Shown here in pieces: positions 27,043-63,722 of a stretch of DNA of 64,000 nucleotides. The first letter of the stretch is position 1. Each line of letters begins with the position of its first letter. Position numbers and translations under genes: made by a program. The notes under the pieces were generated by a model. The model did no database searches, was not told where the DNA came from, and worked only from the letters and a program-made list of their open reading frames with translations. Origin of the DNA: Wenzhouxiangella sp. (GTDB lineage: Bacteria; Pseudomonadota; Gammaproteobacteria; Xanthomonadales; Wenzhouxiangellaceae); contig JAZBOC010000107.1 of assembly GCA_036353315.1 (NCBI GenBank), positions 6,236 through 70,235 on the forward strand. Direction: 5' to 3'.

Positions 27043-28128
27043 CTAACGGCCTGACGCGGAAATGATCCGACGACAGCGGCGCAGCAGATAGTTGACGGCA
27101 ATCCAGAAATGCTTGAACTGAGGGTTGCGAGTCTGGCCCTTGTGGTAGCGGTAGTAGATCTGCTGGGCGATCACGGCCAGCCGGAACAGTCCGTAGACTT
27201 CGTAGAATGCCCAGTCATCCGGTCTGAATCCGGTCTTTTGGCAGTAGTAGTCGACCACCTCGGCACGCGTCAGCATGCCAGAGATGTGAGTTGGCTGGCG
27301 CCGGAAGCCCTTGAAGTACTTCTCATCGTCATCCTGGACCCAGTAGGCCATGGAATTGCCGAGGTCCATGAGCGGATCGCCCAGGGTGGCCAGTTCCCAG
27401 TCCAGCACGCCAATGATCTTGAGCGGATCAACGGGATCCAGCACCAGGTTGTCGAAACGGAAATCTCCGTGGATGACACGGATCGCAACCTCTTCGGGCA
27501 CGCGCTCGGCCAGCCAGCGCATCACGGACCGCCCGGGCAGCACGTTCCAGGTTTTTGCCCGCCGGAAACGCTCCGACCATCCTTCAATCTGACGTCGGTT
27601 ATAGCCGGCACCCTTACCGAGTTTTTCCAGGCCGGCCGCCGCCACGTCGACCTGATGCAGGTCGATCAAGCGATCGATGGCGGCCGTAGAAAGGCGCCGA
27701 GCCTGCTCAGCATCCAGGGCCAGGCCCTCAGGCAGATTCGCGCGCAGGATGATGCCTTCAAGGCGCTCCATGACGTAGAAGTCAGAGCCGATGACGTCAT
27801 CATCGGTACACAAGGCCAACATTTGCGGAACGTAAGGAAAAACCGGCTTGAGCGCCTTCTGCACCTTGTACTCGCGCACCATGTTATGGGCAGATTTGGC
27901 CTTGGTCCCCGGTGGCGGTCGCCGCAGGATCAGATCCCGGTCCGGATAGCGCAACCGATAGGTTAAGTTAGAAGCGCCCCGCGCGAACTGCTCAACCTCA
28001 GGCGTGCCGTCCAGACCGTCGACTCGCGATTTGAGCCATGCATCAACGGCCTCGACGTCAAAGCCGTCTTCCTGGCGCAGGGGGCGGGGACGGTCCAGCA
28101 ACCCCGGATCATCTTTGGAGACAGACAT
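27043..28128 (-). CDS. aminoglycoside-phosphotransferase-fold kinase (ACAD10/11 N-terminal-domain-like; LvaA-like)
   Basis: ATG at 28128 gives MSVSKDDPGLL...QFARGASNLTYRLRY. Brenner/catalytic region VIHGDFRFDNLVLD and DWELATLGDP. Directly downstream of the FadE2-type dehydrogenase. Confidence 0.8.
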   Translation of the reverse strand: MSVSKDDPGLLDRPRPLRQEDGFDVEAVDAWLKSRVDGLDGTPEVEQFARGASNLTYRLRYPDRDLILRRPPPGTKAKSAHNMVREYKVQKALKPVFPYVPQMLALCTDDDVIGSDFYVMERLEGIILRANLPEGLALDAEQARRLSTAAIDRLIDLHQVDVAAAGLEKLGKGAGYNRRQIEGWSERFRRAKTWNVLPGRSVMRWLAERVPEEVAIRVIHGDFRFDNLVLDPVDPLKIIGVLDWELATLGDPLMDLGNSMAYWVQDDDEKYFKGFRRQPTHISGMLTRAEVVDYYCQKTGFRPDDWAFYEVYGLFRLAVIAQQIYYRYHKGQTRNPQFKHFWIAVNYLLRRCRRIISASGR

Positions 28129-28201
28129 GGCCAACACGCGCGAAGAATCAGCGTCAAGTTTAGCCGGGCCGCTCGCGTCTGTCAGTCCCAACGCGCGCCG
28201 C

Positions 28202-29410
28202 TCAGTCCTTGTAGGCGCTGAGTTCCATCCGGGCGATGAGCGCGCGGTGGACTTCGTCGGGGCCATCGGCCAGGCGCAGCGAGCGAGCCGCAGTCCAGGC
28301 GGCAGCCAGCGGGAAATCACCCGATACGCCCGCTCCGCCGTGGAGCTGGATCGCCATATCGATGACCTCCTGGGCCATGCGCGGGACGGCCACCTTGATC
28401 TGAGAAACCTCGCTCATGGACTGGCGAATACCTTTGTGATCCAGACACCAGGCCGCTTTCAGAACCAGCAGGCGGGCCTGCTCGATGGCAATGCGCGCCT
28501 CGGCTATACGTTCTGCGTTTCCGCCCAGCTTGGCCAGCGGCCGCCCAAACGCTGTTCGCTCCAGCGCGCGCCGACAGGCCAGCGCCAAAGCGTGCTCGGC
28601 CAGCCCGATCAAACGCATGCAGTGATGGATGCGGCCGGGCCCCAGCCGACCCTGAGCGATTTCGAAGCCGCGCCCTGGCCCGGCGATGATGTGATCGACC
28701 GGCAGACGCACGTCGACAAAGCTGGCCTCGCCGTGTCCGTAGGGGGCGTCGAGCATGTTCATGGCGGTCAGCATGCGCTCGATCTTGACGCCAGGGCTGT
28801 CCAGGGGCACCAGCACCATGGAATGACGCCGATGGCGATCTGACTCCGGTTCCGTCAGGCCCATAAAGATGCCGACCTGACAATCCGGGTGTCCCAGTCC
28901 CGTGGACCACCACTTGCGACCGTTAAGCACGACATCAGGCCCGTCGATCAACGCTGTGGCCTGCATATTGGTGGCATCCGAAGAGGCAACATCCGGCTCG
29001 GTCATGAAGAAAGCCGATCGAATCTCGCCGTCCAACAGAGGCCGGAGCCAGCGCGCCTTCTGGCGCTCTGAGCCATAGTGATAAAGCACTTCCATGTTGC
29101 CGGTGTCGGGCGCGTTGCAGTTGAAGATCTCCGGCGCGATGAACGAGCGCCCCATGCGCTCGGCCAGCGGTGCGTAATCAAGCACCGACAGGCCCTGACC
29201 CAGTTTTTCGTCGGGTAGAAAGAGGTTCCAGAGACCCTGCCTCCGTGCCTTGTTCTTGAGTTCGCCGATGATCGGCAGGACCTGCCACGGCGGGTCCAGC
29301 GCAGCCATCTGCCGATGCCATTCCGGCTCTGCCGGCTCCACTTCAGTAAGCATGAAGTCGTCGACACGCTTTGCAATCTCGCGAGCTTTTTTCGAGGGCG
29401 TCAGGTCCAT
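28202..29410 (-). CDS. acyl-CoA dehydrogenase, FadE2 / ACAD10-11 C-terminal-domain type
   Basis: ATG at 29410 (GGAG 5 nt upstream) gives MDLTPSKKAREIAKRVDDFM. FNCNAPDTGNMEVL, FFMTEPDVASSDATNM and C-terminal RLADGPDEVH are typical of this ACAD subgroup. Confidence 0.9.
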   Translation of the reverse strand: MDLTPSKKAREIAKRVDDFMLTEVEPAEPEWHRQMAALDPPWQVLPIIGELKNKARRQGLWNLFLPDEKLGQGLSVLDYAPLAERMGRSFIAPEIFNCNAPDTGNMEVLYHYGSERQKARWLRPLLDGEIRSAFFMTEPDVASSDATNMQATALIDGPDVVLNGRKWWSTGLGHPDCQVGIFMGLTEPESDRHRRHSMVLVPLDSPGVKIERMLTAMNMLDAPYGHGEASFVDVRLPVDHIIAGPGRGFEIAQGRLGPGRIHHCMRLIGLAEHALALACRRALERTAFGRPLAKLGGNAERIAEARIAIEQARLLVLKAAWCLDHKGIRQSMSEVSQIKVAVPRMAQEVIDMAIQLHGGAGVSGDFPLAAAWTAARSLRLADGPDEVHRALIARMELSAYKD

Positions 29411-33266: not shown

Positions 33267-33992
33267 TCAAGGGCCTTTGCCGATCCAGGTGTCGAAGGGC
33301 CAGTCGCTGCCGGCCCGCATGGCCTCCAGCCCGGCGCGCTCGCGCTCGCTGATGGTATCCAGGAAATGATCCGCCGAGCCCATTTCGGCGAAGGCGTTGA
33401 GCCCGTCGCGCAGAAATTCCTGCAGCGCTCTGAAGCCGGCGACAACAGCCGGCCCATGCATCAGCCGAATAAGGCGATGAACCAGCGGTCTCTGAACGGT
33501 CTCGCCCAATAGTTCTCCAAGCTCACGAATCAGAATCAGCTGACGCTCTCGGCCCTCCCAGTCACCATGAGCGCGGTACGCTCGGGCATAGTCGGGCTGG
33601 GTGATCGGATCGACTTCCAGCAGCAACTCGGCCAAGGCCAGATCGAACTGCAGACTGACCGCCTGCAGCTGCATGGCGTCGCCAACCGCAGCCAGCAGGT
33701 GATCGGGCAGGAATCGGCGCATCACCGGCGCTGCGCGCATCAGCTGTCGGTCACGCTCGACGAAATCGCGACCGCCGTAGAGCTCATGCAAGAAGAACTC
33801 GCAGGCCGGCAGGTAGCGGGGATCGTCGCGCAGGTCCTGGTAGGTCGCATCGAGACGCAGCCGCTGCCAGTGCTGCAGCCGGGCCAGTGAGCGGGCGTGC
33901 GGCACATCCAGGTCATGAATCTGCTGACCCAGTTCCTGATTGACCAGGATCTGCTGGTGCAGATGCCGGTAGGACGGCGACTCGCTCATCAA
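33267..33992 (-). CDS. conserved hypothetical protein carrying an FFLxELY-type motif
   Basis: 241 aa soluble helical protein. Motif CEFFLHELYGGRDF. ATGA overlap with the upstream peroxiredoxin gene. I recall a family named for an FFLEELY motif but cannot verify it here. Confidence 0.55.
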   Translation of the reverse strand: MMSESPSYRHLHQQILVNQELGQQIHDLDVPHARSLARLQHWQRLRLDATYQDLRDDPRYLPACEFFLHELYGGRDFVERDRQLMRAAPVMRRFLPDHLLAAVGDAMQLQAVSLQFDLALAELLLEVDPITQPDYARAYRAHGDWEGRERQLILIRELGELLGETVQRPLVHRLIRLMHGPAVVAGFRALQEFLRDGLNAFAEMGSADHFLDTISERERAGLEAMRAGSDWPFDTWIGKGP

Positions 33993-34435
33993 AGCTGCCG
34001 GATCGCCTCGATCAGTTCCTCTCGCCGGCGGCGGAACACCGCCACGCTTTCTACATGGCGATATCGAACGCGCTGATCCTCATCCAGCAAAAAGACTCCC
34101 CTTTTCATTCCAATCAGTGCCTTGCAGTCATATTTTCGAGCCACCTCAAGGTCAGCATCACTGAGCAGCGTAAACGGCAGATCATGCTTGTCGCGAAACG
34201 CCCGGTGTGACTCCGGATCGTCAGGGCTGATCCCGACGACCTCCACGTCCAGGCCGGCAAACGCCTCCACGCCGTCACGGTAATCGCATAGCTGGGCAGT
34301 GCAGACCGGGGTGTCGTCACCCGGGTAGAACACCAGCAGCAGCCGCTTGCCCCGGTGATCGGACAGTCTGAACAGGCCACCGGACTGATCCAGCAATTCG
34401 AAGTCAGGCGCCTGGTCGCCGGTTTGGATCGTCAT
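33989..34435 (-). CDS. bcp: thiol peroxidase, Bcp/PrxQ-type peroxiredoxin
   Basis: ATG at 34435 gives MTIQTGDQAPDFELLDQSGGLFRLSDHRGKRLLLVFYPGDDTPVCTAQLC (peroxidatic and resolving Cys, CxxxxC). The longest ORF adds 74 implausible residues. Confidence 0.85.
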   Translation of the reverse strand: MTIQTGDQAPDFELLDQSGGLFRLSDHRGKRLLLVFYPGDDTPVCTAQLCDYRDGVEAFAGLDVEVVGISPDDPESHRAFRDKHDLPFTLLSDADLEVARKYDCKALIGMKRGVFLLDEDQRVRYRHVESVAVFRRRREELIEAIRQL

Positions 34436-34504
34436 CGGTATGCCGCCTTTGCTAAAAAGATGATCAAGCGGTGCATTATAATCGAGCAACAGGAGACTCC
34501 AGCC

Positions 34505-35737
34505 ATGCTCAAGCTTACTCCCGCCAGCCAGAATCGACGCCTTACCCGAGCACCCACGATCGGTTTGGCGATCGCCGGCGGTGGACCCCTCGGCGCGATT
34601 TACGAACTCGGCGTCCTGCAGGCGCTCGAGGAAGCCATCGACGGCGTCCGGATGCACGACCTGGACGTCTACGTGGGGGTCAGCTCCGGGTCTTTTCTGA
34701 CCGCAAGCCTGGCCAACCGGATCACGACCAGCCAGATGAGCCGAATCTTCATGAGCTCACCTGACGCAGAGTTTCGCTTCCAGCCCGACCTGTTCCTGCG
34801 ACCGGCCGTACGCGAGTACTTCGATCGGGCGATGAGCGTGCCCGGTGTGGTTCTGGATATTCTTGTTGAGTGTATTCGCCACCCCGAACGCATTGCCCAT
34901 CTGGAAAGCATCGAGAGTCTGAGCCGCTTGATTCCGACCGGCATTTTCGACAACCACAGCATTGATGACTTCGTAGCCGGCATTCTTTCCAGGCCCGGTC
35001 GCAGCAATGATTTCCGAAACCTTGGCGCTCGCCTTCGAATCGTGGCCGTCGACCTGGAAACCGGCCAGGCGGTTCGTTTTGGAGAACCCGGCCGGGACCA
35101 CGTGCCGATATCGACCGCGGTTCAGGCTTCAGCTGCGCTGCCCGGCTTGTATCCGCCAGTCGAGATCGAAGGCCATTACTATGTCGACGGCGCGCTGCGG
35201 AGAACGCTCCACGCTTCGGTCGCGCTGAAAGAGGGTGCCGACCTGTTGATCGGCATCAATCCATTGGTGCCCTATGACGCTGAACTGGACCCGGGCGTGC
35301 CACCGGACGGGCGCAGTTCCAGCCGGATGATCAAGGGCGGACTGCCCGTGGTTTTATCGCAGACCTTTCGCGCGCTGATCCAGTCGCGCATGCAGGTCGG
35401 CATGGCGAAGTACCAGACTGAATTTCCGGGCTCTTCGATCCTGTTGGTCGAACCCAACCGCAACGATGAGCGCATGTTCTTCACCAACGTGTTCAGCTAC
35501 TCATCGCGTAAGGAGCTGGTCGATCACGCCTACCGAACCACGCGCGCCGAGCTGCTCGCCCGGGCTGACGCCATGGAGGCATTCCTTGAACCCTACGAAC
35601 TGGGTCTCAATCGCGCCATCCTGAAAAAGGACCGTAGCTTCATTGAAGCCATGGCGGCTGAAAAACGCTATTTAGCCCCGATGGGCAACAGCCTGGCACG
35701 CAGTCTCGACCAGCTAGATCGGCTGCTGCGCGGCTGA
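34505..35737 (+). CDS. patatin-like phospholipase family protein
   Basis: ATG at 34505 (AGGAGA 8 nt upstream). Oxyanion GLAIAGGGPLGAIYELG, nucleophile GVSSGS (GxSxG), catalytic Asp in YYVDGAL. Confidence 0.85.
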   Translation: MLKLTPASQNRRLTRAPTIGLAIAGGGPLGAIYELGVLQALEEAIDGVRMHDLDVYVGVSSGSFLTASLANRITTSQMSRIFMSSPDAEFRFQPDLFLRPAVREYFDRAMSVPGVVLDILVECIRHPERIAHLESIESLSRLIPTGIFDNHSIDDFVAGILSRPGRSNDFRNLGARLRIVAVDLETGQAVRFGEPGRDHVPISTAVQASAALPGLYPPVEIEGHYYVDGALRRTLHASVALKEGADLLIGINPLVPYDAELDPGVPPDGRSSSRMIKGGLPVVLSQTFRALIQSRMQVGMAKYQTEFPGSSILLVEPNRNDERMFFTNVFSYSSRKELVDHAYRTTRAELLARADAMEAFLEPYELGLNRAILKKDRSFIEAMAAEKRYLAPMGNSLARSLDQLDRLLRG

Positions 35738-35752
35738 CAGTCTCTCTGGGCG

Positions 35753-35774
35753 CACGGGGCCGCGCGGCCCCGTG
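35753..35774. terminator. GC-rich hairpin between convergent patatin and reductase genes
   Basis: CACGGGGCCG (35753..35762) pairs with CGGCCCCGTG (35765..35774). No clear U-tract on either side. Confidence 0.35.
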
Positions 35775-35793
35775 TGCCCGGAGGCCACGATGA

Positions 35794-37782
35794 CTACCAG
35801 TGAATCCCGCGCATCAGCGAGGCGAAGGCGACCTGTTCCTGTGTCGGCTGATCGTCCCGATCGCCCTTTTCGCCTTTGGCCGCCGACGAATCCGGAAACA
35901 TCCTGAACGCGGAGTTCATGATGATCTCCGAGCTCTTCGGCGCGATCGAATGCAGCACCTGCGAGAAAATCCCCAGGCGCGTGGCAATTCGCTGCGGCCG
36001 GTAAATCACCGCCTGCTTGACCATATCGGCCGCATCCTCCGGAGTGATCGTGGGAACTGACTCGTACATCTTGGTCGGCGCGATCATCGGAGTGCGCACC
36101 AGCGGCATGTTGATGGTGGTAAAGGAAACGCCGGTATCGTTGAACTCGGAGGCCGCACAGCGGGAAAACGCATCGAGCGCGGCCTTAGACGCCACGTAGG
36201 CGGAAAACCGGGGCGCGTTCGACAGCACGCCGATCGATGAAATGTTGATAACCTGGCCCTTGCGGCGCTTCTCCATCACCGGCAAAAAGCCCATGATCAA
36301 CTTCAGCGAGCCGAAATAGTTCAGCTGCATGCAGCGCTCATAGTCGTGAAAACGGTCGTAGGACAGCGAGATCGAGCGGCGGATCGAGCGTCCGGCGTTG
36401 TTGACCAGGATATCGACGTGACCGTGATCGGCCAGAACCTGCTGAATCAGGCGCTCGGCGTCTGAAAGATCGGCGAGGTCACAGGTGTAGGCATGAACCT
36501 GCCCGCCAACAGCCTCGATTTCGGCCTTGGTCTCCAGCAGTTGCTCCTCACCGCGCGCCACGATGATGGTTGTGGCACCCGCCTCGCCCATCATAAGCGC
36601 CGTGGCCTTGCCGATTCCCGAAGAGGCCCCTGTAATCAACACAACCTTGTCGCGCACCTTGCCCGACAGCGACCGATCAATGAACAACTCCGGATCCAGG
36701 TGGCGTTCCCAGTAGTCCCAGAGAACCCAGGCGTATTCATCGAGCGGCGGCACGCTGATCCCCGATCCTTTCAGGGCTCGTTCGGCGTCGCGGGTATCGA
36801 AATGGGTCGGATAGTTGAAAAAGCTCAGCATGTCTTTCGGAATGCCGAGGTCCTTGAGCACCTGGTTGATGATTCGCTTTACCGGCGGAAGCATCCCGAG
36901 ACCCTGCTTGACCGGTGCCGGAATCAGGGAGAACAACCGCGCGTCCAGGCGCATCGACATCAGCGGCGCATGCGCTGCCTCGGCAAACAGATTCATGACC
37001 TCGCCGATTCGCTTCGGTGCCGGGTCAGTCAGATGGAAACACTGCCCGTCCAATTTCGGCTTGTGGGCGATGTGGTCCATGGCTCGGGCCACGAAGTCTA
37101 CCGGCACCAGATTGATCCGCCCACCCTCCAGGCCCAGCGTCGGCACCCACGGCGGCAACATTCGGCGCATCTTCTGAATCAACTTGAAGAAATAGTAAGG
37201 CCCATCGATTTTGTCGATCTCGCCAGTCTTTGAATGTCCAACCACGATGCCGGGGCGGTACACCCGCCAGGGGATACTGCAGTGCTTGCGCACCAGGCCT
37301 TCCGAATCGTGCTTGGTCCGGAAATAGGGATGGTTGAGCCCACTGGCTTCTTCGAACATGTCTTCGCGGAACGTCCCGCGATACAGTCCAGCCGCAGCAA
37401 TCGAGGAGGTGTGATGAAAGCACTTGGCCTGGAGCGCTTCGGCGCATTGAATCGCATGCCGAGTGCCGTCGATGTTGGCAGCCTGGTTGTCTTCTGCGCT
37501 GGCCTTCAGGTCGTAGACCGCCGCCAAGTGGAAAAAATGTCGAACCTTGCCGCTTAGCGCCTCCCGATCGGCAGCGCTGAGTCCGAGTGCCGGTTTGGTG
37601 AGGTCACCACTGACGGCCACGACCCGTTTCTTGTGGTCAGCCCAACGCTCTTCGACCAGGCGGTTGAACTTTTTCTTGGAACCCCTCCGGACCAGCACGT
37701 GGACAACCCCCTTGCGCGCCAGCAGCTGGTCGATCAGGTTACGGCCGATGAACCCCGTGCCACCGGTGACGAAATAGGTCAT
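35794..37782 (-). CDS. two-domain fatty acyl-CoA reductase (Marinobacter Maqu_2507-type; alcohol-forming)
   Basis: ATG at 37782 (GGGAGAAG upstream) gives MTYFVTGGTGFIGRNL. N-terminal reductase domain, second Rossmann VVLITGASSGIGKA with SAYVASKAAL, C-terminal QVAFASLMRGIHW. Near-collinear with the Maqu_2507 sequence as I recall it. Confidence 0.9.
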   Translation of the reverse strand: MTYFVTGGTGFIGRNLIDQLLARKGVVHVLVRRGSKKKFNRLVEERWADHKKRVVAVSGDLTKPALGLSAADREALSGKVRHFFHLAAVYDLKASAEDNQAANIDGTRHAIQCAEALQAKCFHHTSSIAAAGLYRGTFREDMFEEASGLNHPYFRTKHDSEGLVRKHCSIPWRVYRPGIVVGHSKTGEIDKIDGPYYFFKLIQKMRRMLPPWVPTLGLEGGRINLVPVDFVARAMDHIAHKPKLDGQCFHLTDPAPKRIGEVMNLFAEAAHAPLMSMRLDARLFSLIPAPVKQGLGMLPPVKRIINQVLKDLGIPKDMLSFFNYPTHFDTRDAERALKGSGISVPPLDEYAWVLWDYWERHLDPELFIDRSLSGKVRDKVVLITGASSGIGKATALMMGEAGATTIIVARGEEQLLETKAEIEAVGGQVHAYTCDLADLSDAERLIQQVLADHGHVDILVNNAGRSIRRSISLSYDRFHDYERCMQLNYFGSLKLIMGFLPVMEKRRKGQVINISSIGVLSNAPRFSAYVASKAALDAFSRCAASEFNDTGVSFTTINMPLVRTPMIAPTKMYESVPTITPEDAADMVKQAVIYRPQRIATRLGIFSQVLHSIAPKSSEIIMNSAFRMFPDSSAAKGEKGDRDDQPTQEQVAFASLMRGIHW

Positions 37783-37941
37783 GAATGCTTCTCCCTGCGA
37801 TCGTTTATTCAAGAATGCCTCTCTGACCGACTAAGATACCGCCTGCCCCCGAATTCTGCCACCTGCAGGGGATCATTGACCCGACTCGGGGCCCGTGCTA
37901 GAAAGGGAATCTTGTTTCTCAATGGACCCGGAATCCACGAC

Positions 37942-38199
37942 ATGAGCGATCTCGACACCCGCTTCCAGCAGGCCCAGGCAGACGCCAAACAACTGCCGGA
38001 ACGGCCTGACAATGACACGATGCTCAAGCTTTACGGTTATTTCAAGCAGGGCTCGCAAGGCGATGTCAGCGGGGAAAAACCCGGTTTTTTCGACTTCGTC
38101 GGCGTCGCCAAGTACGAGGCTTGGGAGAAGCGCCGAGGCATGTCCAGCGACGAGGCCAAGCAGAAATACATCGACCTGGTCGATTCGCTCAAGGGCTGA
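37942..38199 (+). CDS. acyl-CoA-binding protein (ACBP)
   Basis: ATG at 37942 gives an 85-aa protein. RPDNDTMLKLYGYFKQGSQGDV...PGFFDFVGVAKYEAWEKRRGMS is the canonical ACBP four-helix signature (KQA/YxxxK...KWxAW type). Confidence 0.85.
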   Translation: MSDLDTRFQQAQADAKQLPERPDNDTMLKLYGYFKQGSQGDVSGEKPGFFDFVGVAKYEAWEKRRGMSSDEAKQKYIDLVDSLKG

Positions 38200-38215
38200 G
38201 GAGCGCCGCCTGTGC

Positions 38216-38833
38216 ATGGCCCGTAATACTCGCCAGCGCATTCTCGATACGGCCCTGATCCTCTTCAACAACGAGGGCGAGCCCAACGTCACGACCAATC
38301 GAATCGCCGACGAACTCGACATCAGCCCGGGCAATCTGCACTACCACTTCCGTGCGAAGTCAGACCTCATAGAAGCACTGTTTGCGGACTTCGAGCACCG
38401 CATGCTCGACATCCTGGCCGCTCCCGAGGAACGCGACGCCAACATCGAGGACATCTGGTTCCTGCTCCATGTGGCCTTCGAAATCATTGGCGAGTATCGC
38501 TTCATCTATCGCGACCTGACCGACCTTTGCCACCGCCATCGCGGTCTGCATCAGCGATTCCGCGGCATTTTGAGGCTGACCATGCAGTCAGCGCGAGCGC
38601 TGTGCGACGACCTGATCGCCGATGGCCAGATGAAGGCCTCAGCCCGCGAGTTGGAGGCCGTGATTCGCAATATCACGTTGGTGAGCACCTTTTGGCTGGC
38701 TTTCGACCAGGTTCAGGACGCTGACGGGGTGCGACCCGACCGGGCCGCTTGGCAGGTCATGAGTCTGATCAGCCCCTACCTGATCGGCCACTCACGTGAA
38801 CACCTGCAGGCGCTGGCCGACGCCTATGCCTAA
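38216..38833 (+). CDS. TetR/AcrR-family transcriptional regulator
   Basis: ATG at 38216 (GAGGAG at 38200). HTH RQRILDTALILFNNEGEPNVTTNRIADELDISPGNLHYHF. Confidence 0.85.
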   Translation: MARNTRQRILDTALILFNNEGEPNVTTNRIADELDISPGNLHYHFRAKSDLIEALFADFEHRMLDILAAPEERDANIEDIWFLLHVAFEIIGEYRFIYRDLTDLCHRHRGLHQRFRGILRLTMQSARALCDDLIADGQMKASARELEAVIRNITLVSTFWLAFDQVQDADGVRPDRAAWQVMSLISPYLIGHSREHLQALADAYA

Positions 38834-38860
38834 AAAAAACCCGGGCGAATCGCCCGGGTC
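38831..38860 (-). terminator. rho-independent terminator of the phasin gene (also abuts the TetR stop)
   Basis: ACCCGGGCG (38839..38847) pairs with CGCCCGGGT (38851..38859), loop AAT. On the minus strand it is followed by a run of 8 T (complement of 38832..38839). Confidence 0.6.
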
Positions 38861-38921
38861 AAAAGTAGCAGTCTGATACGGGCCGAGGGGAGCCCGGACT
38901 GCTTCGGGGTAGTCGTGTTAC

Positions 38922-39533
38922 TCAGTCAGACTTGGCCGGAGCTTGAGCCGCGGCGGGCTCGGCCGGCTTAGCGGGCTTGGCAGCAGCCTTCTTGGCCACT
39001 TTCTTAGAAGCCGCGGGCTTCGGTGCCTGCTGCTTGCGAGCCAGCTCGCTGACGCGCTTGTTGAGTTCGGCAACCCGGTCGCTGAGCTCGCGGATTTCGT
39101 CCGAAGTCGGGACGCCGAGCCGGCTCAGGGCACGCGCTACGCGCTGCTCAAATACCTTCTCAAGCTTGTCCCAGTTGGTCTGGGCGGTCTTGCGAACCTC
39201 GTCGATGCGGGTTTCCACGTCGCCGCGCACGCCGCCGACGGTATCAGACGCCATCTTGCGGCCCTTGCTTTCCATCTTCGCGCCTTCCTTGACCAGACGC
39301 TCGAACAGCTTGGCCGATTCACCGACCATCTTGCTGGTGGTGTCATCGATGCGCTTGGTGCTTTCCTTGAACAGCTTGCTGCCTTCATCCTGGGCCAGAG
39401 CGAAAGCGCCCAGTCCGGCCAGCCAGATTTCATGCGCATAGTCCTGTGCCTGATTGGCGACGTTCTTGCGCGCTGCGGTCTTTCGGGTCACCTTCTTTTT
39501 GGCGACCTTTTTCTTTGCGGTTTTCTTGGCCAT
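38922..39533 (-). CDS. phasin-family granule-associated protein with Lys/Ala/Pro-rich histone-H1-like tails (PhaF-like)
   Basis: 203 aa. Core HEIWLAGLGAFALAQDEGSKLFKE...FERLVKEGAKMESKGRK fits the phasin family. N-terminal tail MAKKTAKKKVAKKKVTRKTAARK and C-terminal tail APKPAASKKVAKKAAAKPAKPAEPAAAQAPAK. Confidence 0.75.
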   Translation of the reverse strand: MAKKTAKKKVAKKKVTRKTAARKNVANQAQDYAHEIWLAGLGAFALAQDEGSKLFKESTKRIDDTTSKMVGESAKLFERLVKEGAKMESKGRKMASDTVGGVRGDVETRIDEVRKTAQTNWDKLEKVFEQRVARALSRLGVPTSDEIRELSDRVAELNKRVSELARKQQAPKPAASKKVAKKAAAKPAKPAEPAAAQAPAKSD

Positions 39534-39629
39534 GATTCATGCCTCCTTGCGTCCAGTGAAACATCCTGCTGTCTTTTCAGCAGCTTTGATGGGTAAGATA
39601 CGCTTGGGTTCTAGAGCAGTCACACTAAT

Positions 39630-40463
39630 ATGCAGACCAGCCAGTGGGCACCCTTTCCCCACGACAGCAAGCGCTTCCAGTTCGACGGTCCGTCTCTGGA
39701 AAAAGCCTGGGACAACCTCCATCGCGGCGATCGTGAACCGTTTCCCGATGCGGATCGGGTCCTCGCTCTCGATCCCGGACAGCGCGATCCGGAAGCGACC
39801 GCCGGCGCCTGGCAACAGGCATGGCGGGATTATCATGCGGGCCGATTCGCTGCCGCCGTCGAGGGTGCGCTGGCGATCGGCGCGCTCGCCCATGCCGTGG
39901 CCAACAAGGCCTGCGGCATCTATGCCGACTATCTGGAAAACGATGAAGACACCCGAATTGAAATCTACAAGACCGGCATAGACCGTGCCGAAGCCGCTGT
40001 TCAGGCCTTTCCCGAAGATCCTAACGCCCACTACTTCCATGCATTCCTGCTCGGGCGCTACAGTCAGTGCATCTCCGTAGCCAAGGCCCTGGCCCAGGGT
40101 GTTGGTGGGCGAATTCGACAGTCGCTGGACCGCGCCCTGGCGCTCGCGCCCGACCACGCCGAGGCGCGCACCGCCTCAGGTCTTTACCACGCCGAAATCA
40201 TCGACAAGGTAGGAAAACTGGTCGGCGGCATGACCTACGGCGCCAAGGCCGACAAGGCGATGTCCGAGTGCCAGGCCGCTCTGAAGCTCACCCCGCAAGC
40301 GCCGATTGCGCATATCGAATACGGCAATGCCCTGTATCTGCTCTATGGTGACAAGCGCCTGGATGACTCCAACAAGGCCTATGAACAGGCCGCAGCGATC
40401 ACACCGATCGACGCCATGCAGCAACTCGACGTCGAATTCGCCAGAAGCTACTTGGACAGCTAG
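39630..40463 (+). CDS. hypothetical helical-repeat (TPR-like) protein
   Basis: 277-aa ORF with genome-like codon usage. Helical hairpins such as DRALALAPDHAEARTASGLYHAE and ECQAALKLTPQAPIAHIEYGNALYLL. No family recognised. Confidence 0.6.
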   Translation: MQTSQWAPFPHDSKRFQFDGPSLEKAWDNLHRGDREPFPDADRVLALDPGQRDPEATAGAWQQAWRDYHAGRFAAAVEGALAIGALAHAVANKACGIYADYLENDEDTRIEIYKTGIDRAEAAVQAFPEDPNAHYFHAFLLGRYSQCISVAKALAQGVGGRIRQSLDRALALAPDHAEARTASGLYHAEIIDKVGKLVGGMTYGAKADKAMSECQAALKLTPQAPIAHIEYGNALYLLYGDKRLDDSNKAYEQAAAITPIDAMQQLDVEFARSYLDS

Positions 40464-40509
40464 TGGCCCATGCGGTTAACTGGTGGGCGATGCGGCTAAT
40501 TAGGGAGCC

Positions 40510-42000
40510 TCAAAATCCAGGGACGTGGTCCAGGCTGCCCTGAATCCACTCGTGAACTTCATCGTAGGCATCCGGGTCGACCAGGCCATCCTGCGGTCCG
40601 ATCAGCAGAGTCAGGTGCAGAAGGTTATCGAATTCTTCGATGAAGTGGCGCATGACCGTATCCGGGTCCGGCACCAGCTTGTTATCCGTGATCAGCCCGC
40701 AAAACACCTGTCCCTGGTAGCTGATGATACTGATTCCCATGCCGATCGATCCGGTCTGCGGCACCCAGAACATCATCTCGCGAATCGGTGAGCCGGCCAT
40801 GTAAAGGGTTTGCTGCGGTCCCGGCACGTTGGTCAGCACGGTACTGGCTTTGCGGCTGAAAAGCTCCAGCGCCGGCTTCTGCAGCGCTGCAGGGCCCATG
40901 CCCAGAACAGCCAGCAGCCCCAACGACATGACCGCCTGCTTGGAGCGCTTGAGTTGCTCCATGAATTCAGCGACCTGATACAGCCTCGCCAACGGATTGG
41001 TCTCGCCGATTGGCAGATCGAGGAAGACCAGCCCAAAGTGATTACCGAGGTCGCGCGCGTGCTCAAGCGGACGCAGGTTGACCGGCACGGTGGCGCGCAT
41101 GGTCAAAGACTCGGGATCATCACCGGACTCAATCAGATAACGGTGCAAGGCCCCCGTCATGACCGAGATCAACACGTCATTGACCGTAGCCCCCAGCGCG
41201 TGACCGACCGCCTTGACCTCCTCCAAAGGAACAGGGGGCGCCCAGGACACGCGCTTGCGAACGCCCAGCGCGCCCTTGAAACGCGACGGCGGATCATCAT
41301 CCAGGAGCAAGGCGGTGGCCAGCTCTGAGACGATTTCGCCGGCGCCGAAGAGGTATTCGGCCGCCTTGTGCGGCTCGCGCAGCAATCCACTGGCCTCATC
41401 AACGACCTTCTGGCTGACGTTCTGGATCAGCCCGGCGCTCTCGCGCGCGGGCGCAGTCAGCCGATTGAAGATGTTCGATTCGGCCGCTCGCTTCTGCTTC
41501 CAGGCCTCCTGCTCGACCAGACGATTCGAGGCATCGGCCGAGGTTTCGGTCAGAGAGAGCATGACCTGGACCAGGGCGATGCCGTCGGCATAGCAGTGGT
41601 GGATCCGGCTGACGGCCACCGGACCGCCCTGATAGTTTTCCACGAAATGGAATTGCCACAGCGGTTTGGTCTTGTCCAGCGGGGTTGAGGCCAGCTCCGA
41701 AACCAGTTCCTCGAGCTCGGCCTTGCCGGCATCGCCCGGCAGCGCCGTGCGCCGGATGTGACTCGACAGTTCGAACTGATCGTCTTCTTCCCACCAGCAG
41801 CCTCTCGGATGGTCAACCGCTTTCTGCCGGAAGCGCGGGAAGGCTAAAAAACGGTTGGCAACGATGCGACGGAAATGCTCGAAGTCAACCGCCTCGGCGA
41901 GCTCGATCACCCCGGTAATCATCATCAGATTGGTTGGCTGCTCCATACGCAGCCAGGCCGTATCGACCTTGGCGATCGGTTCCCTGCGAGCGGTGCTCAA
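40510..42000 (-). CDS. wax ester synthase / acyl-CoA:diacylglycerol acyltransferase (WS/DGAT)
   Basis: Catalytic HHCYADGIAL (HHxxxDG). N-terminal PIAKVDTAWLRMEQPTNLMMI and C-terminal NVPGPQQTLYMAG motifs. TTG at 42000 preceded by AGGGAG is my preferred start; the track start is TTG at 42066. Confidence 0.9.
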   Translation of the reverse strand: MSTARREPIAKVDTAWLRMEQPTNLMMITGVIELAEAVDFEHFRRIVANRFLAFPRFRQKAVDHPRGCWWEEDDQFELSSHIRRTALPGDAGKAELEELVSELASTPLDKTKPLWQFHFVENYQGGPVAVSRIHHCYADGIALVQVMLSLTETSADASNRLVEQEAWKQKRAAESNIFNRLTAPARESAGLIQNVSQKVVDEASGLLREPHKAAEYLFGAGEIVSELATALLLDDDPPSRFKGALGVRKRVSWAPPVPLEEVKAVGHALGATVNDVLISVMTGALHRYLIESGDDPESLTMRATVPVNLRPLEHARDLGNHFGLVFLDLPIGETNPLARLYQVAEFMEQLKRSKQAVMSLGLLAVLGMGPAALQKPALELFSRKASTVLTNVPGPQQTLYMAGSPIREMMFWVPQTGSIGMGISIISYQGQVFCGLITDNKLVPDPDTVMRHFIEEFDNLLHLTLLIGPQDGLVDPDAYDEVHEWIQGSLDHVPGF

Positions 42001-42074
42001 GGCGTTCTCCCTGCTTGTTGTCGTTTGTTTTGCAATGATTCTTCCACGCCGTCGCGAAAGGGTCAATCGCGTCT

Positions 42075-42545
42075 TCAGTGCAATTGCCGGCCCTCGCCGG
42101 CCACATCCGGGGACTTGACCAGATCGTAGGGCAGCTTGACCTGGTCCAGTCCAAACTGCTTGAACACCGGCTGGAGCTGATGGTGCATCAAGGGGTAGAG
42201 CTGCCGGGTCAGACTCGCGTGTGAACCGGAAAACTCTTCGAAGCTAACCCCCTCACCCTGGAACTGGCGATAAACAGTCTGCAAGACCAGTTCGACTTCA
42301 AACAGGGCCTCGGCAGATTCGTCGGACTCGCGGCTGCCGCGACAGGTCATGCGGGCGGTGACCTGGTACTGATTCACACCCTGATCCGGTGGCATGGCGC
42401 GCGGGGTGAGTTTGAGTTCAACCTTGGCCCGAAAGGCCTGATCGGGGGCCACGATCTCCTTGAGGTCGGCGTTGAGCCGGGTGACCTGGGTGTGAGCCAG
42501 AGCAAAACGATCGAGCAAATTCAGCATGAGTTGGTGTCTTCGCAC
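42075..42545 (-). CDS. SecB-like chaperone-fold protein (tentative)
   Basis: 156 aa (GTG start; ATG alternative at 42527). By hand alignment ALFEVELVLQTVYRQF and LTRQLYPLMHHQLQPVFKQFGLDQVKLPYDL parallel E. coli SecB AFLCEVQQGGIFSI and [30 protein letters not shown]. Confidence 0.45.
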   Translation of the reverse strand: MRRHQLMLNLLDRFALAHTQVTRLNADLKEIVAPDQAFRAKVELKLTPRAMPPDQGVNQYQVTARMTCRGSRESDESAEALFEVELVLQTVYRQFQGEGVSFEEFSGSHASLTRQLYPLMHHQLQPVFKQFGLDQVKLPYDLVKSPDVAGEGRQLH

Positions 42546-42653: not shown

Positions 42654-45503
42654 TTACTGACGCTTGAAAGTCGTGACCTGAACCGAAGCCTGCCCCGCCT
42701 GCTCTTCGCCGATGGCAAGCGGCAAGTAATCGTTGACCAGCCACAGTCGAAGCTGGTTGGTGTACAGCGGGCTCAGGAACAGGCCGCTTCGACCACCAGG
42801 AATGATTTCCTCGGCCTGAGGTCCATCCGGGGTCACCACTGCCACGTTGCGGCGGGCCGCGCCCGAACTGAAGGTGAAGGCGTTCTCCGATCTGGCCCGA
42901 GCGCTGTGACTGGATGCATCGACGGCTTCGAACCCGCCGGCACGCGCGATGCCGGGCAAGTTTTCCGCGACGTCGGAGAATCCACCGGCACCCGGCACGT
43001 TGAACGGTGCGGTATTCAGCGGGTGATCCAAGACGACGCGATGCAGTTTGCCCCAGCGGTAGTCGTTCTGATCTTCAGACATTCCAAACGCGTTGGCAAA
43101 CGGCTCGCCGGCCAGGCGATCCAGCGCACCCTGCAGCGAGGTCAGCAGCACTGCGTCTCGAGCATCAGCCGGACTCGGCGCTTCCGGTACGTTGAAGTAG
43201 CTCAGCCCGGACGCCGCCTGGCCCTGGGTCAGCGGAAAGGCGCGCAGCTGGTTGACCAGCGCCCGCCAGGCCAGCGTGCTTGACGGCAGCGCGTTGCCCA
43301 GTCCAACGGCCGTCAAGGTCGCATCAATGGTGTTGGCAATCACCTCTCCACGCCAAACGCTGTAGATCGTGGTCGCGATGCTGTTGGCCATCTCGGCGTT
43401 GCTCGGCATTCCGTTGCCGGTCGGATCGCCGCCGGGATCAAAACCACCGGGCAGGCCGGTCGGGCTTGAGAAATCCCAGGCGGCCAGTCGGCCCATGGCC
43501 TCCTGCACCCGAGGGTCGGCAGCGATCGCTGCAAGACCGGGCCATGCGCCCGCCGCAGCGGCATTGTCGAATGCCTGCAACAGGAAGGGCAGCAGTAATT
43601 CGGCGTCGAGCAGCTGGTTGTTGGCCTGCAGGGCCTTCATGTCATCGATGCTGACGTTACCCCGCGCAACCAAGTCCTGAAGCTCACGATCGATGCGGCC
43701 CATGCGCAAGTCAGCGTAGCTGGTGTTGAGGTAATACAAACCGTTACCGCCCGGACGAAGCTGGTTGAGCGGGTTGCCGTCCAGCGTTGTGCCCACAGGG
43801 TCATTGTTGGCGTTCGCCAGGTAACCCCAGGGTGGGTTGACGATGTTCGGCATTTCTTCCCGGGGAATCAGCGCATAGGGCGTGGCCTGGCCCGGCTGCG
43901 GATCAGGGTCGATCAGCCACTCGTGATTGAGCGCACCGCTGCCGTCGCGGATGAACCAGGGCGGCCGGCCGCCGTCTGGAGCCAAGTCGTTTTGCAGGTC
44001 GGCGCGGAGCGGCATTTCACCACCGATGTAGTAGGCGATATTGCCATCGACATCGGCGTAGAGGAAGTTCTGCGAACCAAAGGCAAAGTCACGCAGACCC
44101 ACCTCGAAATCCTCCTGGCTGCGCGCCCGCGCCCAGGACCGAAAGGCAGACAGCTCAAACGTCGGACCCCAGCCGGTGTACTGAACCGACAGGGCGCTGT
44201 CGCCCATCAACTCAAGGATCGGACCATTGTTGCGACGCGGCACGATGAAAGTGATGCCGCCGCCGTCGAAACCAACGTTGACCCGGTTGACGTCGTCAAG
44301 CGCCCCGTTACCCGGCGTATTGGCGAAGTAGGACTGGAACACATAGAGAATGCGTTCCGGCACCCCCTTGTGGATGGTGTGCGTGGGCAGGCCAAAATTA
44401 TTGACCAGGATCGGTTCCTGAAATACATCGGTGACGTCCAGTCGGTTGACGGTCGAGCCCCAGCACAGGAAGGGCGTGCAGCCCTGTGCATTGACCGGAG
44501 CACCCGGGAATACCACGCCGCTGACGGCCAGGTCCTCGTCGCGGATGACCAGGTTCTCGTTCATGAAGATCGGCGGCATCGTCAGACCCAAATGGGGATC
44601 GTTGGCGAACAGCGGATAGCCGGTATCGGTGTGCTCGCCGGACACGGCCCACCAGTTGCTGCCTAGATCGAGGTTCTCCCCCAGGAACGGCAGGTCCTGG
44701 ACGCGCTCCAGGTAACGCCGACCGAGCTCGACCAGGGTGGGATCGATCGGCTCCATGTCGAGAAGCTCAGGCGTCTGCTGAAGTCCTGCAGCGACTGCTT
44801 CTTTGGATGCTTCCTGCCCTGATTCAGGCAGGATGACCCCGATGCGGTCAAAGAAATCTGGAATGGAGACCCGACCGTCGACCGGGATGCTTGGGTTGAG
44901 ATCCTGCAGGAACAGGGCCGTGCCGTCGAAACCAGCGGCCTCGCCGACCGCCTGATAGGTCCCGATGCGTACGGTGTTGCCGATCGCCGACAGGCTTTGG
45001 TCGAAAGACAGCTGAAAAGCCAGCAGCTTGCCAATGGCCAGCGAATCCACCGAACTCCAGGGCTCGGCCGCGCTCAGCTCTAAAGCGCCATACTCCGGCG
45101 GCAGCGGATTGGTCGCCAGGTAGTGGTTGACGCCGTCGGCGTAGGCCTTCAGCCAGGCCGTCTCGACCGGGCCCAGACCGGCAAAACTGGCCCATGCGGC
45201 CCGACGCAGGCCCAGCGTGCGCAGCTGAATATCACTGGCCAGAGCCGGCGTCCCGACCAGTTCGGCCAGCGTGCCCGATGCTACCCGACGCAGGAAATCC
45301 ATCTGGAAAAAGCGATCCCGAGCGTGCAGATAGCCCTGGACAAAGGTTACATCGGTTTCGGTTTCACCGACGATGGTGGGAATGCCGTTGGCGTCGGTGA
45401 ATACGTTCACGTCTGACTGAAGCCGCGGCACTTCCACCGTCTGGGCCGAAGCCACGGACACCGTCAGAAGCGCTGCGGCAAGCATCGAAAATTGCCTCAT
45501 CAT
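42654..45503 (-). CDS. secreted penicillin-acylase-family Ntn hydrolase (possible acyl-homoserine-lactone/lipid-amide acylase)
   Basis: 949 aa. Signal peptide MLAAALLTVSVASA|Q, family N-terminus GYLHARDRFFQMDFLRR, predicted self-cleavage G281|S282 NWWAV (Ser codon 44658..44660), then ANDPHL. Confidence 0.9.
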   Translation of the reverse strand: MMRQFSMLAAALLTVSVASAQTVEVPRLQSDVNVFTDANGIPTIVGETETDVTFVQGYLHARDRFFQMDFLRRVASGTLAELVGTPALASDIQLRTLGLRRAAWASFAGLGPVETAWLKAYADGVNHYLATNPLPPEYGALELSAAEPWSSVDSLAIGKLLAFQLSFDQSLSAIGNTVRIGTYQAVGEAAGFDGTALFLQDLNPSIPVDGRVSIPDFFDRIGVILPESGQEASKEAVAAGLQQTPELLDMEPIDPTLVELGRRYLERVQDLPFLGENLDLGSNWWAVSGEHTDTGYPLFANDPHLGLTMPPIFMNENLVIRDEDLAVSGVVFPGAPVNAQGCTPFLCWGSTVNRLDVTDVFQEPILVNNFGLPTHTIHKGVPERILYVFQSYFANTPGNGALDDVNRVNVGFDGGGITFIVPRRNNGPILELMGDSALSVQYTGWGPTFELSAFRSWARARSQEDFEVGLRDFAFGSQNFLYADVDGNIAYYIGGEMPLRADLQNDLAPDGGRPPWFIRDGSGALNHEWLIDPDPQPGQATPYALIPREEMPNIVNPPWGYLANANNDPVGTTLDGNPLNQLRPGGNGLYYLNTSYADLRMGRIDRELQDLVARGNVSIDDMKALQANNQLLDAELLLPFLLQAFDNAAAAGAWPGLAAIAADPRVQEAMGRLAAWDFSSPTGLPGGFDPGGDPTGNGMPSNAEMANSIATTIYSVWRGEVIANTIDATLTAVGLGNALPSSTLAWRALVNQLRAFPLTQGQAASGLSYFNVPEAPSPADARDAVLLTSLQGALDRLAGEPFANAFGMSEDQNDYRWGKLHRVVLDHPLNTAPFNVPGAGGFSDVAENLPGIARAGGFEAVDASSHSARARSENAFTFSSGAARRNVAVVTPDGPQAEEIIPGGRSGLFLSPLYTNQLRLWLVNDYLPLAIGEEQAGQASVQVTTFKRQ

Positions 45504-54399: not shown

Positions 54400-54479
54400 G
54401 GCCGGTTCGGGGCTGTCATCGGATGGCGGTAAAACGCTATTGTAGTGCCTCATGTCCCACGGGAGACCACAGCTTGGAG

Positions 54480-62479: not shown

Positions 62480-62492
62480 GCAGCACCGGCCG

Positions 62493-62720
62493 CACTCGCT
62501 TGAGGCGTTGTGCCCAGCGCATTGCCGCCCGTTGCTCTGCCGGCGTACGGTCCCCTTCTCGCGCCGGCCGGACCGGCCTGGCTCCTCGGATCCGCCGGGC
62601 CGGCGTGATCCAGGCTCGCCACGGGCTGTTGGGTGCGAACACCCCGTGGAAGCGGGTCAGATTCAGGCGCGACGGCGGGATGAGTGCCGCCAGCCGGGCA
62701 ATGAAATCCAGTGGGTTTTT
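62493..62720 (-). pseudogene. IS91-family (HUH/Y2 rolling-circle) transposase C-terminal fragment
   Basis: Minus-strand frame reads KNPLDFIARLAALIPPSRLNLTRFHGVFAPNSPWRAWITPA...RAAMRWAQRLKRV, the conserved C-terminal region of IS91 transposases. No N-terminal or catalytic part; homology ends 14 nt from the uup stop. Confidence 0.7.
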
Positions 62721-62724
62721 CCGA

Positions 62725-63642: not shown

Positions 63643-63670
63643 GCCACCGATCCCCCGTTTATTGCCCTAA

Positions 63671-63698: not shown

Positions 63699-63722
63699 GT
63701 CTGGTGTGTGGCGATGGACTGA

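Follow-up and report, generated by a model that had tools for sequence, protein, structure and literature searches.

Organization of the locus

A 64,000-nucleotide stretch of Wenzhouxiangella sp. (GenBank assembly GCA_036353315.1, contig JAZBOC010000107.1, positions 6,236 to 70,235 of the forward strand), referred to here as the window, contains a compact group of genes predicted to act in the synthesis and storage of neutral lipids (Table 1). The group comprises a two-domain fatty acyl-CoA reductase, an acyl-CoA-binding protein (ACBP), a TetR-family regulator, a phasin, a 277-residue tetratricopeptide repeat (TPR)-like protein (the TPR protein), a wax ester synthase/diacylglycerol acyltransferase (WS/DGAT), and a 150-residue protein predicted to have the fold of SecB (the SecB-fold protein). 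A patatin-like lipase gene adjoins the reductase, and the locus is thereby extended in the nearer relatives. Genes were called from an open reading frame (ORF) listing together with Pfam and NCBIfam scans of the ORFs; the remainder of the window encodes housekeeping functions (citrate synthase, the pyruvate dehydrogenase complex, TypA, and a tRNA synthetase). An initial annotation made from the sequence alone had named the genes of the group, and the listing and scans find all of them in the positions and families that it gave. One correction concerns the ACBP and TetR genes, which had been described as divergent; they are co-directional and separated by 16 nt, and the pair diverges jointly from the reductase gene, with the TetR gene convergent with that of the phasin.

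The reductase matches the NF005539/PRK07201 model over residues 1–662 (997.3 bits, cut-off 549), with an NAD_binding_4 domain (PF07993, residues 5–235; motifs GGTGFIG and YFRTK) followed by a short-chain dehydrogenase/reductase (SDR) domain (PF00106, adh_short, residues 379–569; motifs TGASSGIG, NNAG and S...YVASK), and from its family it is predicted to catalyse the four-electron reduction of acyl-CoA to fatty alcohol. The acyl-CoA-contact motifs YGYFKQ..GD, KYEAW, and KQKY are visible in the ACBP sequence. The WS/DGAT scores above the TIGR02946 cut-off and carries the HHxxxDG active-site motif as HHCYADG, as first annotated, at residues 134–140 (window 41581..41601); wax ester synthase and/or diacylglycerol acyltransferase activity is predicted from this well-characterised family. 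Its start is a TTG codon at 42000 with an AGGGAGA Shine-Dalgarno sequence, giving 496 residues compared with 495 in the homologue of Wenzhouxiangella strain AB-CW3. The patatin-like lipase has the Ser-Asp dyad and the oxyanion motif, with the domain above its cut-off, and is a candidate for mobilising stored lipid.

The nearest structures to the TetR-family regulator are 3nnr and 3rh2, whose entry names give neither function nor ligand, and its recognition helix is nearly invariant among 66 sequences. The phasin has a Lys-rich N-terminal segment of 27 residues (pI 12.0) and a basic C-terminal segment of 37 residues (pI 10.3) that includes 14 Ala, 6 Pro, and 9 Lys/Arg. These tails are far shorter than those of PhaF, and the protein is a candidate for both the coat of a lipid body and a tether to the nucleoid.

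Table 1. Genes and predicted signals of the lipid locus, in window coordinates
Feature	Position	Strand	Evidence and remarks
Patatin-like lipase	34505..35737	+	PF01734 95 bits, cut-off 27.7; GGGPLG, GVSSG, DGA motifs
GC-rich palindromic hairpin between convergent patatin and reductase genes	35744..35783		23-nt arms, 91% complementary
Two-domain fatty acyl-CoA reductase, Maqu_2507/PRK07201 type	35794..37782	-	NF005539
GTATCTTA, -10-like element of the reductase promoter	37832..37839	-	Kept as TAAGATAC in relatives
acbp-tetR promoter, TTGACC-N14-TGCTAGAAA, extended -10	37876..37904	+	Conserved in 48 distinct relatives
ACBP, 85 aa	37942..38199	+	PF00887 99.8 bits, cut-off 28.3
TetR-family regulator	38216..38833	+	PF00440 (TetR_N) and PF13972 C-terminal domain
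Intrinsic terminator common to convergent TetR and phasin genes	38838..38860	-	10-bp stem, 8 GC pairs, then T-run
PhaF/PhaI-family phasin	38922..39533	-	PF05597 136.5 bits, cut-off 28.8; TIGR01837 114.7, cut-off 94.7
GTATCTTA, -10-like element of the phasin promoter	39594..39601	-	Conserved; 5' end of RNA contig (39571) just downstream
Imperfect 21-bp palindrome TTCTAGAGCAGTCACACTAAT, core TAGnG-N6-CnCTA	39609..39629	.	Over putative -35 (GTGACT) of the phasin promoter
TPR protein, TPR-like, 277 aa	39630..40463	+	Weak TPR/RMD1-3 matches only
WS/DGAT, 496 aa	40510..42000	-	TIGR02946 416.3 bits, cut-off 309.95; PF03007 137 bits, PF06974 140 bits
WS/DGAT promoter, TTGACC-N14-TGGAAGAAT	42038..42066	-	Own promoter; same class as ACBP promoter
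SecB-fold protein, 150 aa, directly upstream of WS/DGAT	42075..42527	-	No Pfam match

Conservation of the locus across relatives

A synteny survey of one genome per species, anchored on the TPR protein, yielded 80 loci from isolates and metagenome-assembled genomes (MAGs) of the Wenzhouxiangellaceae and Lysobacterales. The window proteins were mapped onto these loci, and the denominators given here are the loci that could be assessed. The phasin gene is adjacent to the TPR gene and divergent from it in every case (73 of 73), and the WS/DGAT gene is convergent with the TPR gene and within 3.3 kb of it in 61 of 63 loci, being directly adjacent in 49 of those 61. The reductase, ACBP, and TetR genes are found together in the order seen in the window in 51/56 loci, and the reductase is present in 52/56, with 68–95% identity. 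The lowest identities among the loci are 33% for the phasin, 37% for TetR, and 57% for the WS/DGAT. The arrangement, for which the initial annotation had proposed a synteny comparison, thus recurs in about 80 species-level genomes, and the objection that it is conserved in no relative fails.

The flanks vary. The penicillin amidase and tryptophan dioxygenase genes are lost in some relatives, and the patatin and SecB-like genes are lost or moved; the SecB-like gene is present in 38 of 72 loci, and the patatin gene, found in 25 of 52 assessable loci and located elsewhere in AB-CW3, is a peripheral member. There are also insertions within the locus. One example is a gene for a HerA/DUF87-type ATPase of ~575 residues between the TPR and WS/DGAT genes of several distant loci (L059:10879-12606, and also in loci L063, L068, L072, L074 and L076; the assignment is Pfam-confirmed in L059 only). 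A second example is seen in L043 and L046, in which a secreted protein with a weak P-domain match is encoded instead of the HerA-like ATPase.

A different island layout is found in a second, large clade of marine-sediment Lysobacterales (L073, L075 and L081–L083; e.g. L081:8111-16872). The order here is SDR, phasin, double phasin, TPR protein, WS/DGAT, Abhydrolase_3 esterase, cation diffusion facilitator (CDF) transporter, alpha/beta hydrolase, and a second WS/DGAT that is divergent. The double phasin has 343–360 residues and a weak apolipoprotein-like match, and an SDR gene and an APH kinase-like gene are upstream of the phasins; no reductase, ACBP, or TetR gene is adjacent in this clade. Because the sister clade lacks these three neighbours, the invariant core of the island is the phasin (or phasins), the TPR protein, and the WS/DGAT, and the reductase-ACBP-TetR group is a module attached to it in the clade of the window. 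We note that the window itself encodes an APH-family phosphotransferase (27043..28320) similar to that of the APH and SDR pair flanking the phasins of L081 and L083, although this is perhaps a coincidence.

A search with a distant TPR homologue as query, as a means of reaching beyond the order, recovered another Lysobacterales clade, with 74–92% identity to the query. No comparable cluster was found in a plasmid collection. In that collection, the neighbours of a distant TPR relative on Marinobacter adhaerens pHP-187 are signalling genes, none of the locus genes is found within about 7 kb on either side of a full-length reductase relative carried by a Tsukamurella plasmid, and TetR relatives in Ralstonia and Cupriavidus stand alone. 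The collection also contains multi-megabase Acinetobacter baumannii records (3.7–4.1 Mb, apparently whole chromosomes; NZ_CP077849.1, NZ_CP064203.1 and NZ_CP104448.1), with relatives of TetR, the phasin, and the C-terminal SDR half of the reductase at widely separated positions. This spacing fits the statement of the initial annotation that such genes are usually scattered in Acinetobacter. The PF05597-like phasin relative of A. baumannii is 30% identical over 66% of the query and is unlinked to the relatives of TetR and of the SDR half; it is possibly of interest, since Acinetobacter stores wax esters.

Promoters and a candidate operator

The locus is not an operon, and is predicted to have at least six transcription units on alternating strands with two promoter classes. 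There are hairpins between the convergent gene pairs and a promoter-like site at each unit. The hairpin between the patatin and reductase genes is likely a bidirectional terminator, and the strong terminator first ascribed to the phasin gene is present, with a 10-bp stem and T-run reading from 38860 to 38838.

The two predicted promoter classes each serve two units. The -10-like element GTATCTTA is present only twice on both strands of the 64 kb, upstream of the reductase and the phasin, with 0.14 copies expected, and the pattern TTGACC-N14-TGnWAGAAW is present only at acbp-tetR and the WS/DGAT, with 0.02 expected; these statistics are generous because both patterns were defined after the two sites had been seen. 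The conservation in relatives is independent evidence: the second pattern is conserved at both positions, and the WS/DGAT promoter is kept as TTGACC...TGAAAGAATC with or without a SecB-like gene upstream.

The palindrome over the putative -35 of the phasin promoter is a candidate operator. It has 85 matches in the 1.39 Mb of 84 loci, is present in 80 of the 84, and is found essentially nowhere else. Loci with two phasin genes, including those of the sister clade, have two copies, one upstream of each phasin gene. The ATG of the TPR gene directly abuts the palindrome (CACACTAAT followed by ATG) with no visible Shine-Dalgarno sequence, both in the window and in many close relatives, and a leaderless mRNA for this gene in the window is one possibility. 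In other relatives the TPR gene has a TAGAAT -10 of its own and is separated from the palindrome by a further ~100 nt or so.

Several other assignments were considered and rejected. A single operator for all of the promoters, as in a TetR regulon, is not found, as the palindrome TAGAG-N3-TCACACTA has no second copy in the 64 kb with up to three mismatches. An operator within the ACBP promoter was rejected because palindromes are no commoner in the promoter spacer than in shuffled spacers (mean arm 2.77 compared to 2.43, median p 0.69). Inspected by eye, the phasin palindrome is not a CRP site, since one half-site (TCACA) fits, the other does not, and the palindrome is centred near -32, nor is it a sigma-E promoter, since the required TCAAA -10 is not conserved.

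Expression in strain AB-CW3 and in microbial mats

A published proteome of Wenzhouxiangella AB-CW3 (PMC7691419, Table S1) includes the syntenic genes abcw3|02717-02726, and we give its values in the order staph/peptone/casein. The phasin is abundant under all three conditions (0.41/0.14/0.20, above DnaN), the ACBP is ~10-fold higher on prey cells (0.099/0.009/0.011), and the TPR protein (0.0081/0.0015/0.0013) is at the level of an enzyme and not of a coat protein. These three rise together on whole prey cells, unlike the reductase and the WS/DGAT. The reductase (about 0.05), WS/DGAT (0.003–0.006), and SecB-like protein (about 0.02) are also detected, and TetR is the only product of the locus that is not detected in this proteome. 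None of the six proteins detected has a signal peptide in the same table.

The phasin is also prominent at the RNA level. In four microbial-mat metatranscriptomes, phasin mRNA alone assembles from the whole 13-kb region, as contigs spanning 38902..39571 and 38902..39554 with 99–100% identity, both monocistronic. This fits a monocistronic and highly expressed phasin gene whose transcription begins a short way past the predicted -10. Of the products of the locus, the phasin is the dominant one.

The TPR-like and SecB-fold proteins

The 277-residue protein had been described initially as an unknown helical-repeat protein, and its AlphaFold2 (AF2) model (pLDDT 96.6) is indeed all-helical and TPR-like. 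The best Foldseek match is BstC (7t1s; E 2.5e-6, TM 0.55/0.64), ahead of generic TPR proteins, with the TPR domain of PTPIP51/RMD3 second (7cc7; E 5e-5, TM 0.57/0.68); a sequence profile reaches 7cc7 weakly (E 1.4e-3). There are more than 7000 homologues, of which the named ones are from Wenzhouxiangella spp. The mean column identity in the family is 71%, with many invariant Tyr, His, Asp, and Glu residues, and because of this strong conservation and these invariant residues the sequences suggest a defined ligand site. No hydrophobic N-terminus is present. The fold makes the TPR protein a candidate lipid-binding accessory of the WS/DGAT.

The ORF upstream of the WS/DGAT gene, which the initial annotation called SecB-like, is 150 codons long as judged from its homologues, and its fold and its sequence give different answers. 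The AF2 model (pLDDT 83) matches 5mtw, the SecB-like chaperone Rv1957 (E 2.6e-7, TM 0.68/0.73), as well as the SecB structures 1fx3, 1qyn and 1ozb (E about 2–5e-5). Membership of the SecB family (PF02556) by sequence was rejected, as there is no Pfam or NCBIfam match and the fold alone agrees; there is no sequence match in the Protein Data Bank at E up to 10, and hhalign against Escherichia coli SecB gives a probability of 0.3%. The family is small, with 127 homologues (80 representatives among 1.84 billion proteins), and no sequence relatives are detectable beyond it. Those with names are from Wenzhouxiangella or unclassified gammaproteobacterial and Pseudomonadota MAGs, with the single exception of Leptolyngbya valderiana. 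The SecB-fold protein is a candidate for a dedicated WS/DGAT chaperone restricted to this lineage.

Comparison with known systems

The reductase and WS/DGAT belong to the same enzyme families as those of the wax ester producers Marinobacter aquaeolei VT8 (the fatty acyl-CoA reductase Maqu_2507 and wax ester synthase) and Acinetobacter baylyi (Acr1/AtfA), and the same chemistry is expected, from acyl-CoA to alcohol to wax ester. The domain architecture of the window reductase is that of Maqu_2507, a likeness established through the PRK07201 family profile. However, the wax ester genes of VT8 and A. baylyi are unlinked, unlike those of the window, and in neither is an ACBP, phasin, TPR, or SecB-like partner known.

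The layout around the phasin is reminiscent of the pha cluster of Pseudomonas putida, in which a TetR gene is beside that of a highly abundant PF05597 phasin with a basic, AKP-rich tail and there is a palindrome at the phasin promoter. In Pseudomonas, the TetR-type activator PhaD, for which a CoA intermediate is the proposed ligand, has a palindromic operator upstream of the phasin genes, at their promoter, and it interacts physically with PhaF (PMC7590123). The window TetR appears PhaD-like in its TetR-type helix-turn-helix, its adjacency to the phasin gene, and the palindrome at the phasin promoter, to which it may bind. There are also departures from the P. putida arrangement. The window has a WS/DGAT in the place of PhaC and a patatin lipase in that of PhaZ, the basic tail of the phasin is short and is also present at the N-terminus, unlike in PhaF, and the location of the palindrome over the -35 looks more like repression than PhaD-type activation.

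The two accessory proteins also have structural counterparts in known systems. The PTPIP51/RMD3 TPR domain is a phospholipid-transfer domain, and both it and BstC share the all-helical, TPR-like fold of the TPR protein. BstC is a component of a Methylococcus sterol transporter and holds sterols in a hydrophobic pore (PMC10942540). It is the periplasmic lipoprotein of that transporter, whereas the AB-CW3 table lists no signal peptide for the TPR protein, which is encoded beside a phasin and a WS/DGAT. The 150-residue protein has the four-stranded sheet and long helix of SecB and of Rv1957 from the Mycobacterium tuberculosis HigBA1 system (5mtw), and like Rv1957 it is a stand-alone copy encoded beside a specific putative client, in this case an acyltransferase rather than an antitoxin or secretory protein. 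Finally, actinobacteria have abundant droplet coat proteins with a basic, DNA-binding tail and a dedicated regulator alongside (TadA of Rhodococcus; MLDS and its regulator MLDSR). The logic is similar, but the families are unrelated and the hosts Gram-positive.

A probable neutral-lipid storage island

We interpret the locus as a chromosomal neutral-lipid storage island of the Wenzhouxiangellaceae and related Lysobacterales, vertically inherited and with gene order held even though it is not an operon; we favour this as a probable reading, with appreciable doubt remaining. In it, the ACBP would buffer and deliver a surplus of long-chain acyl-CoA, part of which the two-domain reductase would convert to fatty alcohol, and the WS/DGAT would form wax ester from acyl-CoA and the alcohol (or triacylglycerol, TAG, from acyl-CoA and diacylglycerol). 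The basic-tailed PhaF/PhaI-type phasin would form a coat on the lipid body as it grows, and may also anchor the body to the nucleoid. The BstC/PTPIP51-like TPR protein may bind a hydrophobic substrate or product at the surface of the body as a partner of the WS/DGAT, the SecB-fold protein could keep the amphipathic WS/DGAT soluble or target it, and the patatin lipase would mobilise the store. TetR would play the part that PhaD plays at phaI/phaF of Pseudomonas, sensing acyl-CoA and acting at the palindrome over the phasin -35, with acbp-tetR and WS/DGAT under one strong extended -10 promoter type and the reductase and phasin under another. We infer the roles of the phasin as coat, the TPR protein as lipid binder, and the SecB-fold protein as chaperone from fold, abundance, and strict linkage.

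A more specific version is that a toolkit for polyhydroxyalkanoate (PHA) granules (the PF05597 phasin, the PhaD-like TetR, and the phasin operator) has been re-used for wax-ester or TAG bodies, with a cytoplasmic TPR protein passing substrate or product to or from the WS/DGAT and a SecB-fold WS/DGAT chaperone completing the machine, and that the host genomes may lack a PHA synthase. This is speculative, and we put it forward tentatively. If true, the phasin-TPR-WS/DGAT triad would be the first core for lipid-droplet biogenesis to be defined in a Gram-negative bacterium.

A number of observations weigh against the storage island as described. The first group concerns regulation. The initial annotation had envisaged a self-contained lipid-body module with a dedicated regulator, and of this the conserved order stands and the products are made in AB-CW3, but the genes do not constitute one co-regulated unit. 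No operator is shared between the promoters and none is recognisable in the reductase/ACBP intergenic region (37783..37941), which has promoter elements alone; moreover, the reductase and WS/DGAT do not co-vary with the ACBP, phasin, and TPR protein in the one proteome. Loci L013, L073 and L081 retain the palindrome but have no TetR gene in the vicinity, and the proposed connection between the two is guilt by adjacency. The second group concerns the TPR protein, for which identity to BstC and PTPIP51 is 16–19% and the TM scores of 0.55–0.68 are moderate. It is below the family cut-offs (PF21033, 17.6 bits compared to 26.7; NF045602, 24.3 compared to 350), although PF21033 is nonetheless listed for its family in a precomputed table, and it is predicted to be cytoplasmic whereas BstC is periplasmic.

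The third group concerns the product and its history. That this is wax ester rather than TAG is something that we infer, and as the sister clade keeps the triad without the reductase, the invariant core is generic for neutral lipid. The literature searched yielded no lipid analysis of any Wenzhouxiangella and no account of wax ester, PHA, or lipid inclusions in the genus. In favour of the island, there is no PHA synthase among the window ORFs scanned or the AB-CW3 annotation rows listed, but this negative covers these two sets and not whole genomes. All of the loci are from one order, and shared ancestry therefore contributes to the synteny.

The alternative that survives best is that the alcohol esterified by the WS/DGAT with its BstC-like partner is polycyclic, isoprenoid, or otherwise non-fatty and is delivered by the TPR protein, the esters perhaps serving membrane or stress adaptation in halo(alkali)philes. 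WS/DGAT enzymes are promiscuous for alcohol substrates and steryl-ester droplets have reportedly been seen in bacteria; a sterol binder is the structure nearest to that of the TPR protein, and the clade with no adjacent reductase keeps both the TPR protein and the WS/DGAT. However, the adjacent reductase in 52 of the 56 loci in the clade of the window points to fatty alcohols, and the abundance of the phasin to an inclusion formed in bulk. The similarity of fold is no more than moderate, and there is no sterol or hopanoid cyclase in the locus. This explanation seems unlikely.

A second alternative, which we consider slightly less plausible again, is that the TetR and phasin genes are an ordinary PHA-granule module, like phaD-phaF/phaI, beside unrelated lipid genes, and that the phasin coats PHA. 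Phasins of the PF05597/TIGR01837 type were defined on PHA granules, AB-CW3 encodes a 3-hydroxybutyrate dehydrogenase and a 3-hydroxybutyrate-oligomer hydrolase, and the convergent TetR-phasin layout mirrors that of phaD-phaF (PMC7590123). Nonetheless, no PHA synthase or depolymerase gene (phaC, phaZ) is present among the window ORFs scanned, beside the annotated related loci, or among the AB-CW3 annotation rows listed, and the linkage of the phasin to the TPR protein (73/73) and the WS/DGAT (61/63) extends to the clade with no adjacent TetR. A third proposal is that the gene order is an ancestral synteny frozen in place without functional coupling, with the TPR and SecB-like proteins acting in unrelated processes and the reductase and WS/DGAT independently in lipid metabolism. 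This would account for the restriction to one order, the alternating strands with their own promoters and terminators, and the only partial co-variation in the proteome. It is improbable, as the core persists while flanks turn over and genes are inserted, the triad is again the centre of a rebuilt island with additional lipid enzymes in a second clade, and two gene pairs have rare promoter motifs in common.

Relation to previous work and significance

The co-location of these genes is not without precedent. A 2023 study of WS/DGAT neighbourhoods in subantarctic sediments (PMC10351704) describes beta- and gammaproteobacterial scaffolds, including some from Burkholderiales and thus outside the Lysobacterales, in which a WS/DGAT is beside an ACBP, an SDR 59–62% identical to Maqu_2507, and a PHA-system protein or phasin. 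That study is descriptive and concerns few scaffolds, without conservation counts or expression data; the passages on these scaffolds make no mention of a TPR protein, a SecB-fold protein, or a phasin operator, and TetR is absent from the main text. The novelty that the initial annotation saw in the co-location is weakened accordingly, with the TPR protein, SecB-fold protein, operator, and conservation counts going beyond the earlier description in so far as those passages extend. The enzyme and coat families are all already known, and partial versions of the cluster were noted in that study. New findings are the strict conservation over some 80 species, the core formed by the phasin, the TPR protein and the WS/DGAT, the resemblance of the TPR fold to that of lipid binders, the partner with a SecB fold, the candidate phasin operator, the two predicted promoter classes, and the link to existing proteome and metatranscriptome data.

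Little is understood of the nucleation, coating, and mobilisation of wax-ester and TAG bodies in Gram-negative bacteria; the droplet proteins that are known come from actinobacteria, and in the model wax producers the genes are scattered. The locus offers a compact and evolutionarily conserved list of candidate parts, including two enzymes, an acyl-CoA carrier, an abundant phasin as coat with a candidate operator of its own, a regulator, an accessory protein with a lipid-binding fold, and a SecB-fold partner, and raises the questions of whether a PHA-family phasin acts on neutral-lipid bodies, what a bacterial ACBP is for, and whether WS/DGAT enzymes need helpers. These are directly testable because the locus is present in the cultivable Wenzhouxiangella marina and AB-CW3, the latter with proteome data. 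The locus may also be a ready-made cassette for heterologous wax-ester production, and, given how common the relatives are in metagenomes from soda lakes, mats, and marine sediments, the trait may be of importance to carbon storage there.

Neighbouring genes

Several other features of the window are of note. The patatin gene is the last of a conserved triad of its own (33267..35737), with genes for an FFLEELY-motif protein (NF047641, 207 bits) and a Bcp-type peroxiredoxin (33989..34435). This triad is ~600 kb from the lipid locus in AB-CW3 (abcw3|01948-01950) and adjoins the reductase in the nearer relatives. On the other side of the locus is a gene for a 949-residue penicillin-amidase-family protein (42654..45503; PF01804, 449 bits), whose synteny with the lipid locus is confined to the nearer relatives. 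The AB-CW3 homologue has a signal peptide and is well expressed (0.03–0.12), and an acyl-homoserine lactone or other N-acyl amide is a possible substrate. A 385-codon ORF at 54423..55580 matches the catalytic domain of the RuBisCO large chain (PF00016, 56 bits) only weakly and in part, and probably encodes a RuBisCO-like protein in this heterotroph. The G+C content is 0.557 at 62001..64000, compared with 0.60–0.66 elsewhere in the window.

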